Program-made: the position numbers and the translations under genes
Notes under the pieces: model-generated
Seen by the model: the letters and a program-made list of their open reading frames with translations, nothing else
Told to the model about the DNA's origin: nothing
Databases searched by the model: none
In this document: in pieces, positions 6,915 to 11,405 of the stretch
Numbering within the stretch: position 1 is the first letter of the stretch
Layout: each line of letters opens with the position of its first letter
Origin: Candidatus Margulisiibacteriota bacterium
Lineage (GTDB): Bacteria; Margulisbacteria; Marinamargulisbacteria; JBFWNS01
Assembly: GCA_050250935.1 (NCBI GenBank)
Contig: JBFWNS010000005.1
Location: forward strand, 1-11,512
DNA: 11,512 nt
Reading direction: 5' to 3'

Positions 6915-6922
6915 ACGAGATC

Positions 6923-6967
6923 TGGTGCGCCGTGCTGGATTCGAACCAACGGCCAGCTGATTAAGAG
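6923..6967 (-). repeat. Displaced 3' half of tRNA-Lys(CTT) (att junction, distal end of island)
   Basis: Direct repeat of 11330-11374 with 37/45 identity. On the minus strand it starts exactly at the anticodon loop CTCTTAA and runs through the T-arm (GTTGG TTCGAAT CCAGC) to ACGGCGC-ACCA. There is no D-arm or 5' acceptor strand. Confidence 0.92.
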
Positions 6968-7134: not shown

Positions 7135-7617
7135 CTACACTAGTCCTACTCTTGAATGCTTCCGTATAGCTGCTTGGACATGAGACATATCTAACCCCTG
7201 TTGATATGTGAAATCCATAAGATCTTCTGTGATAGCATCCTCTAGTGTTTTTGCATTGTTATGAACAGATTTAATCCGATGAAATAAGATATTTCTACTT
7301 TCTTCTACCCGCATATCATCGATATGGTGAATCATGCATTTATGGATCAGCCAATTTCTTTCTTCTAAAAAACCCTTTAGGCTCTGCTGTAGTGAATCCG
7401 AATATATCCCGGCTTCCTTAGCCGTATTTATTGCTTTGCCTAGTGTAAGGGCGTGGTACTTGGTAAAAATCTCATCAGCCTGTATTAAAAGCATACAATT
7501 TGGGGTTTTAACGTCTTTTTTCAGTGTGATTGAACGACTTAGGGCCTCTTCTAAGCGTTGGATTTGCCAAACAGCTTCGCCGATAAGGGCGTAAAGGATG
7601 GTAATGTTATTTTGCAT
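7135..7617 (-). CDS. Small all-helical protein with an RxxxxH motif, putative HEPN-superfamily RNase
   Basis: N-terminal helix IGEAVWQIQRLEEAL, TLGKAI motif and EERNWLIHK (R-N-x3-H at 7342-7359) follow the usual HEPN layout. Confidence 0.65.
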   Translation of the reverse strand: MQNNITILYALIGEAVWQIQRLEEALSRSITLKKDVKTPNCMLLIQADEIFTKYHALTLGKAINTAKEAGIYSDSLQQSLKGFLEERNWLIHKCMIHHIDDMRVEESRNILFHRIKSVHNNAKTLEDAITEDLMDFTYQQGLDMSHVQAAIRKHSRVGLV

Positions 7618-8152: not shown

Positions 8153-9331
8153 ATGGATAGGCTGATTGTTAATAGTAGAGTAGACCATTTATGCAAAATA
8201 ATTGCCAATGAATTAGCCAATCGGAACCAATTTCCGGTGCTTGAATTAGCGATATTGTTAGACGGGGATACTCAAGACAATCTGGTAGCGAATTGGAAAG
8301 AACTCTTCGGACTTATCAAGGACTATATCTCAATAGGAGAAAATTTTCGGGCATTTCAGAATTGGGATCCAAAGCCGCATTGGGCAGTTTTAGCTCTCAA
8401 TTTTGGCTATATAAACGAGACCTATAATCTAGATAAAATTACTCTTTATATAGGTATAGGGCTCGTTGAAAAAAAGCGAAAAAGCTTAGATGAACACATA
8501 CAAAATCTATGTAATACTGGCCTTCTAGAAAAAATTAGGTTAAGCGTGGACGATAATTTTCTTGTTGATCTTTCTAATCCTAAATTGGAGATCAGAAGTC
8601 ACGGAGTAATTGTTAACCGAGATATTTTGGTGTATCCACACGAGTTTTTTAGACGATACTACTCTTCAAACTTTCTTGGCATGCCAGGCTTACTGAAGAA
8701 GGCACAAAAAATAGGGCTGCGGGTTTATATAAGACTCGATCCTTTTCGCTTGACATCGAGCAATCACTACCTCGAAATTTCCGAGAAAGATCATTGGTAT
8801 GGGCCGCCTTTTTCAGAAAAGATCCTAAAGGATTTGTATTCTAATACGAGGGTAGTACATCGAAGCACTGGAAAATCAAACTTAAGCTATGATGTTCAAT
8901 TTACGGTTTTTAGAACGAAGATGATGGATGCTTCCATAAGAGAATTTATGATCGAGGAATATTGCCCGATACAGCTTTTCAAAACCCAAAAATCTCCAGG
9001 TATTGGCGACGAATATTGTATACAAAAGTTTGCTCACTTTTGTTACGACCAAATACAGGATTGTTTCACACATTTGGATGGAGCTGTGAGGGTTTTCACG
9101 ACAGAGGAATATAAAAGACATTTTCAAGCTATTGAGCATGGGCAAGATGTAGAAGAAAAAATAGGGACACGCCATAAAATGTTTCTTCTTGAAGGGGCGT
9201 TTACACTAGAGCTAACTCAGGAAATTCTTACAGAGTGGTTTAGATTCAATCCGCATATAGCTGAATACTTTTCTGGAATTACTCTAGAGCCTTGGATTAG
9301 CTATGACAAAATAAATGAAATGGGAATTTAG
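8153..9331 (+). CDS. Hypothetical 392-aa protein, island cargo
   Basis: Long intact ATG-started ORF with AT-rich codon usage, soluble by inspection; no family recognised with confidence. Confidence 0.85.
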   Translation: MDRLIVNSRVDHLCKIIANELANRNQFPVLELAILLDGDTQDNLVANWKELFGLIKDYISIGENFRAFQNWDPKPHWAVLALNFGYINETYNLDKITLYIGIGLVEKKRKSLDEHIQNLCNTGLLEKIRLSVDDNFLVDLSNPKLEIRSHGVIVNRDILVYPHEFFRRYYSSNFLGMPGLLKKAQKIGLRVYIRLDPFRLTSSNHYLEISEKDHWYGPPFSEKILKDLYSNTRVVHRSTGKSNLSYDVQFTVFRTKMMDASIREFMIEEYCPIQLFKTQKSPGIGDEYCIQKFAHFCYDQIQDCFTHLDGAVRVFTTEEYKRHFQAIEHGQDVEEKIGTRHKMFLLEGAFTLELTQEILTEWFRFNPHIAEYFSGITLEPWISYDKINEMGI

Positions 9332-9366: not shown

Positions 9367-10005
9367 CTAAAAAAGCTTTTCTATCTCTTTGGTATACTGA
9401 ACAAGATTCATACTAATCTGATTAAGATCGTTTGAAAGTTCTTTAAAGTGAGGATACCTCTGTTGAATTTCTTGGGGGGACAGAAGACGGTCACTTTCCT
9501 CTAATTCCAGGTTATACCATCTTCTAAATTTGGCTTGCCAAATTGTCAGGTGAGGCCGAAGGCCCGTATTCAGTGTTTTTACAAGGAGATCGATCAATAT
9601 TTTCGAGCTCTCATGATTTTTAAATTCGGGAGGGATCGCCTTTATAAGTTCTCTTGTTTCGCCAAAAAGACGATACCAAGAATCATAAATTTCAACTATC
9701 AGATCATGTTGTAAATCAATCGGAAGGCCCGCTTTCCTTGTGGCTAATTCTGTCCAAGCCTTATGGGCAATTTCAGCAACTTCGAAGCTCTGCTTGATTT
9801 CGATTTTACCGATAGAACCGAGAGGAATATTGAGTTCAACCTTACTTGAGAACATATGGTGAACGTTTCTTTTTAAGGAAAGGGCTATCAAAATAGCTAC
9901 TAGTAGAAGAAAAGCAATAACGAAAACCATGTTGAACCTAACAACTAAATTTGCTTCATCGATTGAAATTTGAAGAAGATTAAAGTTCCCTAAGAGGTTA
10001 TTCAT
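9367..10005 (-). CDS. 212-aa protein with one N-terminal transmembrane helix and a helical soluble domain; putative effector partner of the TIR gene
   Basis: ATG at 10005 overlaps the TIR stop (ATGAATAA) and is preferred over the track's TTG at 10038. TM segment MVFVIAFLLLVAILIALSL is followed by KR. The soluble part contains WTELATRK, EIYDSWYRLF and LNTGLRPHLTIWQAKFRRWY. Confidence 0.8.
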   Translation of the reverse strand: MNNLLGNFNLLQISIDEANLVVRFNMVFVIAFLLLVAILIALSLKRNVHHMFSSKVELNIPLGSIGKIEIKQSFEVAEIAHKAWTELATRKAGLPIDLQHDLIVEIYDSWYRLFGETRELIKAIPPEFKNHESSKILIDLLVKTLNTGLRPHLTIWQAKFRRWYNLELEESDRLLSPQEIQQRYPHFKELSNDLNQISMNLVQYTKEIEKLF

Positions 10006-10681
10006 ATCCGGAGGTCTCACCATAAAGAACTTCTGCAAGAGATTTTTTCATAGTAGACCTATTCCGTTGCATTTGGGGGAGAGAGTTTTTAATAAGACCC
10101 GAGTTCTTTCGGTTGGAAAAAGCTTCTTCTATCCGTTTTGACATCTCAGTGGGATCTTCGGTCCACCGATATTGCTTTGCGTAACCACTCTCGATATTTT
10201 CAGCAAGCCTGGGTGGAATAGACTGTCGAGCAATTTCTGATAGAAGAAAATCCGGATGTGAAGGAAGAGTTAGCCCCAAGATACCTGAATAGCCGTCGAG
10301 CTTCTTATTTAAAGCCCCAGAAATTTCCCAATCAACATGTTTCCGCCCCCATGTGTTTGGCCCACATAATACAACCAAAACACTAGCGTCTAGCAGAAAA
10401 TCAGGGCCTTGAATTAAGCGTTTAATATACTCCGTACTAACATCGGTGTTTATATCTCCATTTTGAACAGATTTGTTAATAAAAAGATGTCCAAAAAGAG
10501 ATTCGAAACGATCTTTATAATATTGGTCTTCTCTATGGTAAAAGCTGATAAAAACCTTGCGTCTGACAGAGAGTCCAAGAGGAGCTAAAACGGATCCCTC
10601 AAGACCTAAACCCTTAATAGGTTTTAGGCCTCCTAAATAACTAAGCAGACTGTTTTGTGGATTAGAATTATTACCTATCAA
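9998..10681 (-). CDS. TIR-domain protein of the ThsB / MTH538 (DUF1863) type
   Basis: RRKVFISFYHRED...DASVLVVLCGPNTWGRKHVDWEISGAL...GILGLTLP...IPPRL. The putative catalytic Glu in WE is at 10325-10327 (E119). TTG start with GGAG 6 nt upstream. Confidence 0.92.
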   Translation of the reverse strand: MIGNNSNPQNSLLSYLGGLKPIKGLGLEGSVLAPLGLSVRRKVFISFYHREDQYYKDRFESLFGHLFINKSVQNGDINTDVSTEYIKRLIQGPDFLLDASVLVVLCGPNTWGRKHVDWEISGALNKKLDGYSGILGLTLPSHPDFLLSEIARQSIPPRLAENIESGYAKQYRWTEDPTEMSKRIEEAFSNRKNSGLIKNSLPQMQRNRSTMKKSLAEVLYGETSGYE

Positions 10682-10723
10682 TCTTTGCTCCGTCTCGTCA
10701 CAAGAGATAAAATCAGGACAAGA

Positions 10724-10752
10724 ATTATAGTACCAAAGTATTAAACTTATAA
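10724..10752 (-). promoter_or_regulatory. Candidate sigma70 promoter of the TIR operon
   Basis: Perfect TATAAT on the minus strand at 10724-10729, with a weak -35 (TTATAA, 10747-10752) at 17-bp spacing, about 40 nt upstream of the TTG. Confidence 0.45.
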
Positions 10753-10841: not shown

Positions 10842-10858
10842 AACTTATGGAGGTGGCT

Positions 10859-11116
10859 ATGAAACTTTCAACGGTTAGGTACGAAGAATCGTTCGGGCTA
10901 GAGTTCACGGCTGAAGAACTCTACATCATTAACTGGGCGTTAAGCGATTACATGCTGTTAAAGCAATACAGCCTGACGCACCGGATCGAGGCAAGTCCCT
11001 TTGTTTCAGAAGGGCAGGTCTTAGATCGGTTAAATACTGAGAGAAGAAAAGATATCGAGAACAGTCTAAAAATTAGTGAGAACATGAAGTCCGTAATGGA
11101 ATTACTGGTCTACTAA
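10859..11116 (+). CDS. Hypothetical 85-aa protein
   Basis: The strong SD GGAGGT at 10849-10854 favours ATG 10859 over 10847. The stop lies 1 nt from the convergent HTH stop. Confidence 0.65.
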   Translation: MKLSTVRYEESFGLEFTAEELYIINWALSDYMLLKQYSLTHRIEASPFVSEGQVLDRLNTERRKDIENSLKISENMKSVMELLVY

Positions 11117-11117
11117 C

Positions 11118-11312
11118 TTAAGCTGCTTCAACCCTCTGCTCGATTGACTTTACCAATGCTGACGGTGACAGTTTCAACGTCTTAGCCAAAGCAAACACGA
11201 CCTTTAAAGTCGGATTCCGCTCCCCTCTTTCTAACAAGGACAAATACGTCCGATCCATATCAGATTCCAAAGCCAATTTTTCTTGAGATAACTTCTTTTC
11301 TGTAATCGATAC
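11118..11312 (-). pseudogene. 5'-disrupted XRE-family (HTH_3, C-protein-like) transcriptional regulator, not in the ORF track
   Basis: Hand translation gives VSITEKKLSQEKLALESDMDRTYLSLLERGERNPTLKVVFALAKTLKLSPSALVKSIEQRVEAA*, a textbook XRE HTH. An in-frame TAG at 11313-11315 precedes it, with no start codon before helix 2. An adjacent frame gives FRYRLQK (helix-1-like). Confidence 0.85.
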
Positions 11313-11329
11313 CTAAAACTTAAAAGCTT

Positions 11330-11405
11330 TGGTGCGCCGTCAGGGATTCGAACCCCGGGCCTACTGATTAAGAGTCAGCTGCTCTACCAACTGAGCTAAC
11401 GGCGC
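11330..11405 (-). tRNA. tRNA-Lys (anticodon CTT), 76 nt, CCA encoded
   Basis: Minus strand GCGCCGT TA GCTC AGTTGGTA GAGC A GCTGA CTCTTAA TCAGT AGGCC CGGGG TTCGAAT CCCTG ACGGCGC ACCA folds into a full cloverleaf. Confidence 0.98.

Follow-up and report, generated by a model that had tools for sequence, protein, structure and literature searches.

Two overlapping genes in the window (the whole stretch of DNA that was analysed, 11,512 nt of contig JBFWNS010000005.1 from a Candidatus Margulisiibacteriota bacterium) on balance probably act as an abortive-infection pair of the Thoeris type, made up of a TIR protein of the ThsB type and a membrane protein that spans the bilayer once, here called the partner. 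Since the partner family is almost always found beside TIR genes, the pair is likely to be a Thoeris-like anti-phage alarm system; the arrangement by which Thoeris is recognised is present, in that the TIR gene shares a conserved operon with a dedicated effector gene that is not a TIR. Phage infection would lead the TIR to convert NAD+ to an ADP-ribose-derived signal, and this signal would dock on the basic and aromatic surface that is conserved in the cytoplasmic domain of the partner. Oligomers of the partner would then form and damage the membrane, and phage growth would stop. As far as sequence comparison can tell, the partner family is without a name and has no detectable relation to any described Thoeris effector. 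Thoeris pairs with membrane effectors have already been described (bioRxiv 10.64898/2025.12.03.692087), so what is new is the effector family, the kind of system being known. The same family is present also in DS-4-like TIR-Nmad2 cassettes, which the initial annotation of this DNA had missed and which opens a rival chemistry.

The gene pair and its island

The features of the pair and its surroundings are collected in Table 1. The TIR domain matches the Pfam family PF08937 (ThsB_TIR) with E=8.7e-17 and 61.8 bits (cut-off 21.2); the genome search recovered this match at the same place as the window scan, and the PADLOC ThsB models match the protein at ~1e-7. The domain is preceded by no in-frame ATG. 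Glu119, which we take to be the catalytic residue from established knowledge of TIR and ThsB proteins, is kept in all 40 aligned partner-linked TIRs, where only two other non-start columns are invariant, and aligns inside the W/Y-E-I motif of the solved ThsB structure 9b7d. The intact TIR gene with a putative catalytic Glu, as initially described, is thus confirmed. The profile of these 40 TIRs retrieved solved ThsB structures from the PDB (8wcf at 1.4e-12, 9b7d at 8.6e-12 and 6lhy at 8.7e-12), with no other enzyme family and no NDT or CMP hydrolase among its hits; the window TIR, used as a single sequence, gave no match in the PDB. Partner-linked TIRs, including the one in the window, carry a conserved C-terminal extension of ~70 aa.

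Table 1. Coordinates of the gene pair, its sequence elements and the island boundaries in the window.
Feature	Position (nt)	Strand	Basis and remarks
thsB-like TIR gene	9998-10681	-	ORF; 227 aa; start TTG at 10681
TIR domain, residues 44-140	10262-10552	-	PF08937 match
Putative Shine-Dalgarno-like motif, GGAG	10688-10691	-	Sequence; 6 nt 5' of the TIR TTG
Glu119 codon, putative catalytic, VDWEI motif	10325-10327	-	Sequence
Partner gene, 212 aa and stop	9367-10005	-	Translation; single-pass membrane protein with conserved cytoplasmic helical domain
Transmembrane helix, residues 26-53	9847-9930	-	Model helix; Kyte-Doolittle 19-mer 3.21
Conserved cytoplasmic four-helix domain, residues 74-212	9370-9786	-	Alignments A1 and A3, model helices
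ATGAATAA, overlap of TIR stop and partner start	9998-10005	-	Sequence
TATAAT, -10-like hexamer (candidate only)	10724-10729	-	Sequence; upstream of the TIR gene
tRNA-Lys(CTT), one island boundary	11330-11405	-	ARAGORN; Rfam RF00005, 74.7 bits
Partial tRNA-Lys 3'-half copy, other boundary	6918-6967	-	Direct repeat D1 of 50 nt, 80% identical

The partner was modelled with AlphaFold2 at a pLDDT of 91.3, and its cytoplasmic domain consists of helices at residues 74-89, 103-123, 132-170 and 187-209. The protein has one hydrophobic helix, in agreement with the single membrane helix first proposed, and a transmembrane segment is found in 40 of the 40 family members tested. The K+R content is 0.7 before this segment and 3.15 after it, an asymmetry that predicts an N-out, C-in topology. 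Trp, Tyr, Arg, Lys and His abound in the cytoplasmic domain, whose invariant or near-invariant residues are W84, E86, R90, K91, D101, Y107, S109, W110, Y111, R118, N146, R150, P151, H152, T154, W156, Q157, W163, P177, Q178 and Q181. The three motifs noticed earlier, WTELATRK (residues 84-91), YDSWY (107-111) and LRPHLTIWQAKFRRW (149-163), are all present and lie on such columns of the family. In the alignments the N-terminus and the membrane helix are variable and many polar and aromatic sites of the cytoplasmic domain are invariant, which is how a ligand site would be expected to look. In a few relatives a soluble N-terminal extension takes the place of the membrane helix; swapped N-terminal modules are common among sensor modules.

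The stop codon of the TIR gene (TAA, 10000-9998) and the start codon of the partner (ATG, 10005-10003) overlap by 8 nt, as had been reported. This overlap would allow translational coupling; it would equally suit a stable complex of the two proteins, which counts against the Thoeris-type reading.

Both genes are located inside a 4.4-kb low-GC island at the tRNA-Lys gene. The partial copy of the tRNA runs from the anticodon loop to CCA and resembles an att remnant, and the GC content is 37-43% between the gene and its copy, against 45-55% outside, so that the tRNA island of the initial annotation is borne out. The ORF and Pfam scans found no integrase in the island and left its further genes unannotated, and family scans found no Nmad2, thymidylate-synthase-like or kinase genes there, so the island does not have the composition of a DS-4-like cassette. 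None of the 60 relatives searched has the pair (0/60); with this and the low-GC tRNA island, its distribution is patchy and mobile. A promoter belonging to the pair, also proposed at first, did not find support: the TATAAT hexamer is perfect (10729-10724 on the minus strand), yet it does not coincide with any promoter call of the consensus scan, and the region held 2 sites against 3.7 expected by chance. The stretch was found in three DNA runs of one study, and none of the runs listed with it was RNA.

The partner family and its neighbours

More than 160 proteins, 492 clusters at 50% identity and 287 species genomes were counted for the partner family, which is spread over many phyla and is very conserved. 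The partner has no match in Pfam, NCBIfam, PADLOC or PHROGs other than noise below threshold (NICE-3, 0.068; LetS, 0.011). Its structure searches in the PDB and BFVD returned generic helical bundles only, and the partner profile matched a single PDB sequence, a designed coiled coil (0.035). The models of SIR2-SLOG, Macro-TM, caspase-like, DUF2270 and SLATT effectors (types I, II, IV, V and VII) gave 0 matches in Pfam and PADLOC for the partner and 24 relatives. The view that the partner lacks any ThsA-type motif therefore holds for these four collections, and the defence-model and structure checks once suggested for it found no catalogued effector. Fused forms of the partner domain were sought among proteins of 372-2000 aa and none scored, which is weak evidence. 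No description of the family was found in papers on Thoeris, DUF6650/ThsG, Nmad2 and PDC-M50, the Thoeris preprint with its 29 putative types being covered by its text and not by its figures and supplements. A large and very conserved family with no relative of known structure may thus offer a new ligand-binding domain to characterise.

Linkage was assessed in partner loci from different species, 79 by Pfam and 80 by profile and BLAST clustering. According to Pfam, the ORF directly upstream belongs to PF08937 in 37 of the 75 loci tested, and the one directly downstream encodes a TIR in 21 of 73; together this makes 55 loci in which a TIR adjoins the partner, and 16 more have an adjacent Nmad2 gene with the TIR one gene beyond. 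Of the 79 loci, 71 therefore have a TIR or Nmad2 gene as first neighbour. TIR genes were found in 70 of 80 loci by BLAST clustering, and the TIR profile places a ThsB-like TIR at most 4 kb from the partner in 76 of 80, a count that is partly circular because 39 of the 80 loci fed the profile (the Pfam-based counts are free of this). Whether homologues of the partner consistently neighbour TIR genes, as first suggested, is answered in the affirmative by the Pfam and profile counts alike. Two of the four loci missed by the profile are at contig ends and one has a TIR_2-nSTAND1 gene. Where the TIR lies upstream, as in 37 related loci, the gap between it and the partner ranges from -38 to +47 nt.

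At least two profile TIRs are present in 12 of the 80 loci, 8 further loci additionally carry a DUF1883-TIR_2 gene, and an Aureispira plasmid carries, next to cas genes, a single partner preceded by five consecutive TIR/NDT-annotated genes. Matches to PADLOC models at E<=1e-5 were obtained for 36 of the 133 nearest non-core neighbours, and the defence neighbours include restriction-modification types I to III, pAgo, AriA, bSEFIR, BrxL and SoFic; in two loci (L008 and L045) the pair is flanked by mod/res or by hsdS/hsdR. These multi-TIR arrays and the defence-island context would fit a sensor-effector system. The family is on only 4 viral contigs and only 1 plasmid, and the phage-record collection gave no partner match.

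About 20 of the 80 partner loci are cassettes with Nmad2, thymidylate-synthase-like, 5-hmdU-kinase, MazG_C and UDG genes. In 8 loci of Bacteroidota the partner closes operons with the order HMUDK, thymidylate-synthase-like, Nmad1, TIR and Nmad2, and elsewhere it heads operons of TIR, Nmad2, MazG_C and UDG. The partners of Nmad2 context are scattered through a quick tree of the family, which indicates that the plain-TIR and Nmad2 contexts exchange.

Relation to described defence systems

In the case of Thoeris, 29 putative types have been proposed (Yirmiya et al. 2025, bioRxiv 10.64898/2025.12.03.692087), and membrane-spanning effectors of various kinds are found in types II, V, VI and VII. The same preprint reports that TIR-made cADPR isomers activate the membrane-spanning ThsF and ThsH and the TM-bearing ThsG, which were modelled as oligomers with basic pockets. 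The window pair is like types II (ThsC, TM-Macro), V (ThsF, DUF2270, 3 TM) and VII (ThsH, SLATT) in that a ThsB-type TIR stands beside a membrane-spanning protein. These effectors are predicted to oligomerise on ligand and then to breach the membrane, which is also the reading proposed for the partner. The partner differs from all three by its one membrane helix and its distinct all-helical cytoplasmic domain. The membrane effectors of CBASS (Cap15 and SLATT-type) are small membrane proteins that are activated by a nucleotide signal, and the cell dies. The logic from nucleotide signal to small membrane killer protein is shared with the pair, but the signal is made by a CD-NTase and not by a TIR, and the effector folds are unrelated; the Pfam and PADLOC scans gave no hit of the partner to such a family.

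DS-4 comprises TS, dNMP kinase, 5-hmdU kinase, TIR/NDT and Nmad2 genes and protects E. coli (DeWeirdt, Mahoney & Laub, Science 2026, PMC13092281). A ThsB-like TIR with Nmad2, TS-like and 5-hmdU-kinase genes is the common feature, and the partner joins this same cassette in the ~20 of 80 loci above; the window, however, holds the TIR and partner only, and the five genes listed for DS-4 in that paper include no member of the partner family.

The four-helix domain may be a new receptor module for TIR-made nucleotide signals, present in hundreds of clusters and in most bacterial phyla and wired to ThsB sensors as well as to DS-4-type cassettes; we put this forward tentatively and regard it as doubtful. 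As the domain is wired to both, it could read a signal beyond the known cADPR isomers, and if the module is what it seems, DS-4-like systems would also signal by a small molecule to a membrane-breaching effector. The occurrence of the partner in plain TIR pairs and in DS-4-like cassettes gives a handle on how the latter work. Thoeris-type immunity connects the TIR signalling of bacteria, plants and animals, and to our knowledge every new Thoeris effector family so far has led to a new signal molecule or a new killing mode.

Competing explanations

It is unlikely, and yet worth weighing first, that the partner represents a strongly diverged ThsG of the membrane-bound kind and the pair a type VI Thoeris system, which consists of a ThsB TIR and ThsG/DUF6650 (PF20355) with 2'cADPR as the signal (bioRxiv 10.64898/2025.12.03.692087). 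Some forms of ThsG bear N-terminal membrane helices (Yirmiya et al.), and the two systems are alike in having two genes, a TIR and a small helical effector, with a cytoplasmic domain of similar size (~150 aa). The AlphaFold2 models are also similar in how the first helices are ordered and in how long they are: DUF6650 shows a helix of 16 aa, a loop of 12 aa and a helix of 21 aa, the partner 16, 13 and 21, and two long helices are next in both. This comparison covers helix order and length, and the DUF6650 model has a pLDDT of only 73. The motifs TRK, YDSWY and GLRPHLTxWQA of the partner, in contrast, are absent from the DUF6650 consensus. An Atlas feature search gave at rank 18 a cluster with PF20355 in 13% of its members, with a score of 0.76 that the tool's own note places in the chance range. 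PF20355 itself was found in 0 of 25 family members at E<=1, in 0 of 5 N-terminally extended relatives at E<=0.01 (four of them retested at E<=1, none matching) and in none of 4 partner-bearing genomes at E<=0.01. Hhalign repeatedly aligns the same 25-28 columns of the two families, a beta strand and the first helix, but at a probability of 0.3-0.4% (40 against 15 and 252 against 122 sequences), and hmmsearch without filters gave at most 6 bits in both directions. No sequence link between the partner and ThsG/DUF6650 was thus found with single sequences, profiles or genome searches. Were the partner merely a divergent ThsG, the gain would be smaller, namely better detection models for type VI Thoeris.

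The roles could also be reversed, with the membrane protein as a sensor or anchor (for example of phage DNA entry or envelope stress) that binds and switches on an NAD+-depleting TIR effector, which we hold to be rather improbable. Many bacterial TIRs are NAD+-depleting effectors (bioRxiv 10.64898/2025.12.03.692087). The 8-nt overlap and the fixed order of TIR and partner suit a stoichiometric complex, the conserved TIR extension could serve as a docking surface, and variation in the partner is greatest in its short extracellular N-terminus, as would be expected of a phage-facing surface. The invariant region, however, is the cytoplasmic one, and its richness in Arg, Lys, His, Trp and Tyr is more like a small-molecule site. 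Up to five different TIRs accompany one partner, and several sensors feeding one effector fit this better than the reverse; partner-linked TIRs are, moreover, closest to signal-making ThsB proteins.

The DS-4-like cassettes raise another possibility, a reduced nucleotide-modification defence in which the TIR-like protein would be an N-glycosidase or deoxyribosyltransferase acting on (modified) nucleotides instead of NAD+, and the membrane protein would respond to it or regulate it. HHpred labelled the TIR of DS-4 as NDT/CMP-hydrolase-like (PMC13092281), so the chemistry of these cassettes may not be NAD+-derived signalling. The position of the partner as last or head gene of Nmad2 operons, the scatter of such partners in the tree and the protection of E. 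coli by DS-4 all speak for it. We consider it very unlikely for the window pair, as neither the window nor ~60 of the 80 loci have Nmad2, TS-like or kinase genes, and the window TIR is of the long ThsB-like type, in contrast to the short TIRs of the Nmad2 cassettes, which are 16-26% identical to it. The retrieval of ThsB structures, with no NDT or CMP hydrolase, by the TIR profile in the PDB and the lack of the partner family among the five listed DS-4 genes also stand against it.

Finally, a non-immune pair, which would serve either the island as a toxin-antitoxin-like addiction module or the cell in a housekeeping role at the membrane, would agree with an island that has other unannotated genes and no integrase, but is hardly credible in view of the defence-model matches among the nearest neighbours, the patchy, mobile distribution with few viral and plasmid occurrences, and the ThsB-type nature of the TIR partners.

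The gene pair and its island

The pair consists of two overlapping genes on the minus strand (9367-10681), found by ORF calling and from the sequence itself. The TIR ORF has no in-frame ATG ahead of the domain and starts with a TTG at 10681; a GGAG lies 6 nt ahead of this start. In Pfam it matches PF08937 (ThsB_TIR) over residues 44-140 (E=8.7e-17, 61.8 bits, cut-off 21.2 bits), in PADLOC several ThsB models (1e-7 to 1e-4), and in PHROGs phrog_13658 (8e-14); a search of the genome returned this PF08937 gene alone. As described in the initial annotation, the TIR stop codon (TAA) overlaps the partner ATG inside ATGAATAA, translation of the second gene gives 212 aa, and every motif quoted for it is found in the sequence. 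A TATAAT is present, but the consensus scan gives no support to the candidate promoter proposed there for the pair.

The tRNA-island setting proposed earlier is borne out by a 4.4-kb stretch of 37-43% GC against a background of 45-55% GC. The tRNA-Lys and the displaced copy of its 3' half, which spans the anticodon loop to CCA, are, judged by sequence, a putative attL/attR-like footprint of an integrated element. ORF calls and Pfam reveal no integrase ORF within the island, which thus seems to be an element that has decayed or was mobilised in trans. The 392-aa ORF has no match in Pfam, NCBIfam, PADLOC or PHROGs and is not conserved beside the pair in 79 other loci. For the 160-aa ORF the matches are weak (phrog_12893 at 9e-4; HepT toxin NF047751 at E=0.0052, under the cut-off). 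The 52-aa HTH_3 ORF aligns to profile positions 16-54 only, and may therefore be an N-terminally truncated Cro/C1-type regulator.

Features of the window and of compared loci (L083 and L084 carry DUF6650; the other L-numbers are partner-family loci from other genomes)
Feature	Sequence	Position	Strand	Description
TIR ORF	window	9998-10681	minus	227 aa, upstream gene of the pair
Partner gene	window	9367-10005	minus	single-pass membrane protein
tRNA-Lys(CTT), intact	window	about 11325-11405		island boundary
tRNA-Lys(CTT), 3'-half copy	window	6918-6967		other island boundary; 50 nt, 80% identical
392-aa ORF	window	8153-9331	plus	convergent with the pair
160-aa ORF	window	7135-7617	minus	within the island
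52-aa HTH_3 ORF	window	11118-11276	minus	abuts the tRNA
89-aa ORF	window	10847-11116	plus	no family; adjoins the 52-aa ORF
Type III RM operon	L008	3576-9120		methyltransferase (mod), TIR-partner pair, restriction subunit (res)
hsd operon	L045	1221-7149		hsdS, TIR-partner pair, hsdR
DUF2188 gene	L045	972-1220		small gene near the pair
DUF2188 gene	L061	4375-4806		small gene near the pair
DUF2188 gene	L072			small gene near the pair
TIR array	L093	496-5657		Aureispira sp. CCB-E plasmid NZ_CP133672.1
DUF6650 genes	L083/L084	1465-3053	minus	overlap a 361-aa upstream ORF

The partner family and its TIR neighbours

The partner had been taken for an unrecognised effector, and indeed it yields no significant match in PADLOC or in the family libraries (Pfam, NCBIfam, PHROGs). 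The family is widespread, conserved and unnamed. A word-indexed search returned 160 relatives of 116-371 aa, none with a Pfam domain and each, where named, a 'hypothetical protein'. Among 1.84 billion cluster representatives, searched exhaustively, 492 clusters reach E<=0.001, of which 312 pass <=1e-10 and 90 pass <=1e-30. The 287 loci confirmed in the species-genome collection span CPR/Patescibacteria, Acidobacteriota, Bacillota, Bacteroidota, Pseudomonadota, Planctomycetota, Actinomycetota and other phyla. A search of 60 relatives of the window's genome, each sharing its class or phylum but nothing closer, did not find the partner, which groups with Patescibacteria homologues at modest support (SH-aLRT 86, not starred) in a quick maximum-likelihood tree. 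Viral contigs seldom carry the family (4 loci); it occurs once on a plasmid and is absent from 50,697 phage records.

In the alignments the N-terminus and the membrane segment are variable and the domain after them is strikingly conserved. The residues invariant in a 25-sequence set include W84, E86, R90, K91, D101, Y107, S109, W110, Y111 and R118, as well as N146, R150, P151, H152, T154, W156, Q157, W163, P177, Q178 and Q181. The AlphaFold2 model built from the partner alignment (pLDDT 91.3) shows a short beta hairpin, a helix at 26-53, a second hairpin and four main helices. A strongly hydrophobic 19-mer is present in all 40 diverse members inspected; the mean K+R count is 0.7 before and 3.15 after it, so the conserved domain is predicted to be cytoplasmic. 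P0249, P0255, P0257 and P0259 (representative proteins of 300-337 aa) have no membrane helix; their N-termini are extended by 150-170 aa of soluble sequence that matches no recognised family, a pattern suggesting that the conserved domain serves as a module linked to various outputs. Longer fused forms were not found, which is weak evidence.

ORF calling around the partner covered 79 of the 80 loci retained; L019 (a Gracilibacteria genome) was left out because the table-11 ORF search missed its partner gene. The linkage of partner homologues to TIR genes is seen at several levels. By Pfam, a TIR adjoins the partner in 55 of the 79 loci, and Nmad2 in 16 further ones; the first same-strand upstream ORF is ThsB_TIR in 37/75 and Nmad2 in 10/75, the first downstream ORF a TIR family in 21/73 and Nmad2 in 6/73. 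When all genes within 3.5 kb are clustered by BLAST, ThsB-like TIRs appear in 70/80 loci, including the window. A profile of 40 partner-linked TIRs finds one within 4 kb in 76/80, a partly circular count since 39 loci supplied the profile sequences. The misses lie at contig ends (L021, L077), near a TIR_2-nSTAND1-FGE gene (L079) or with an nSTAND1-WD40 gene (L025).

In Thoeris systems, several ThsB sensors feed one effector. Partner loci show the same pattern, with more than one kind of TIR for one partner: 12 loci have at least two profile TIRs, and 8 have an additional DUF1883-TIR_2 gene. The Aureispira plasmid carries five consecutive NDT-domain/TIR-annotated genes (one of 686 aa) followed by one partner 'hypothetical protein', with cas6 and cas1 a few kb away; this array is a source of the partner from a cultured bacterium.

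Thoeris-type and alternative readings

The architecture, conservation, TIR linkage and context of the pair are direct observations, and their most likely reading, which we favour somewhat, is a Thoeris-type pair. The TIR would sense infection and make an NAD+-derived signal; this would bind to a conserved face of the partner's cytoplasmic domain, basic and aromatic in character, and the partner would oligomerise and damage the membrane. The Thoeris-like interpretation of the initial annotation is supported in part.

According to a recent preprint (Yirmiya et al., bioRxiv 10.64898/2025.12.03.692087), there are 29 putative Thoeris types, of which types V-XI are validated. In type VI a TIR is paired with ThsG (DUF6650, PF20355), which 'in some cases' has membrane helices at its N-terminus. 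The partner family may already be catalogued among the putative types. The partner could be a divergent membrane ThsG, which would leave the mechanism unchanged and give it a known label; we consider this unlikely. Genuine DUF6650 proteins were collected and aligned for comparison, and their AlphaFold2 model (pLDDT 73) has a helix order and length similar to the partner model, a likeness generic for helical bundles. PF20355 matches 0/25 family members at E<=1, 0/5 extended relatives at E<=0.01 (four of these also at E<=1) and 0/4 partner-bearing genomes; hhalign gives 0.3-0.4% probability (40 vs 15 and 252 vs 122 sequences), and hmmsearch with filters off <=6 bits. By sequence the partner is therefore not a member of PF20355, and the two may share a fold. 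The partner is a new putative effector family in a known kind of system, set apart from DUF6650 by sequence. In two actinomycete genomes (L083, L084) the 361-aa ORF upstream of genuine DUF6650 genes appears SIR2-like by eye, and no TIR ORF is evident near these genes in the ORF lists inspected.

A reversal of roles within the pair, with the TIR as an NADase effector, seems more doubtful still.

Nucleotide chemistry resembling that of DS-4, instead of NAD+ signalling, is improbable. Its description (PMC13092281) presents DS-4 as a five-gene system protecting E. coli (TS, dNMP kinase, 5-hmdU kinase, TIR and Nmad2), with a TIR labelled NDT/CMP-hydrolase-like by HHpred. In about 20 loci the partner lies within longer operons matching this composition; the five genes listed for DS-4 include none of the partner family. 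Eight Bacteroidota loci carry, in this order, a 5-hmdU DNA kinase (HMUDK_hel), a thymidylate-synthase-like gene, Nmad1 (DUF1599), a short TIR, Nmad2 and the partner; other long operons have the partner, TIR, Nmad2, MazG/MazG_C and UDG, in that order. The cassette TIRs are merely 16-26% identical to the window TIR and do not have its conserved C-terminal extension. Partners in the Nmad2 context are scattered across the quick maximum-likelihood tree, and the link to DS-4-like cassettes is a point worth pursuing.

Defence neighbourhood

That the pair has no defence role is very improbable. Of the 133 non-core genes that lie nearest and encode at least 100 aa, 36 match PADLOC models at E<=1e-5. 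The majority of these belong to RM types I, II and III, and the remainder include pAgo, AriA, bSEFIR, BrxL, SoFic and PDC candidates; 2 are further TIRs and 2 others are not strictly defence enzymes. RM operons of several genomes contain the TIR-partner pair as an insertion (L008, L045, L001, L049). Three loci have small DUF2188 genes close to the pair; Yirmiya et al. (bioRxiv 10.64898/2025.12.03.692087) name DUF2188 as a putative Thoeris effector.
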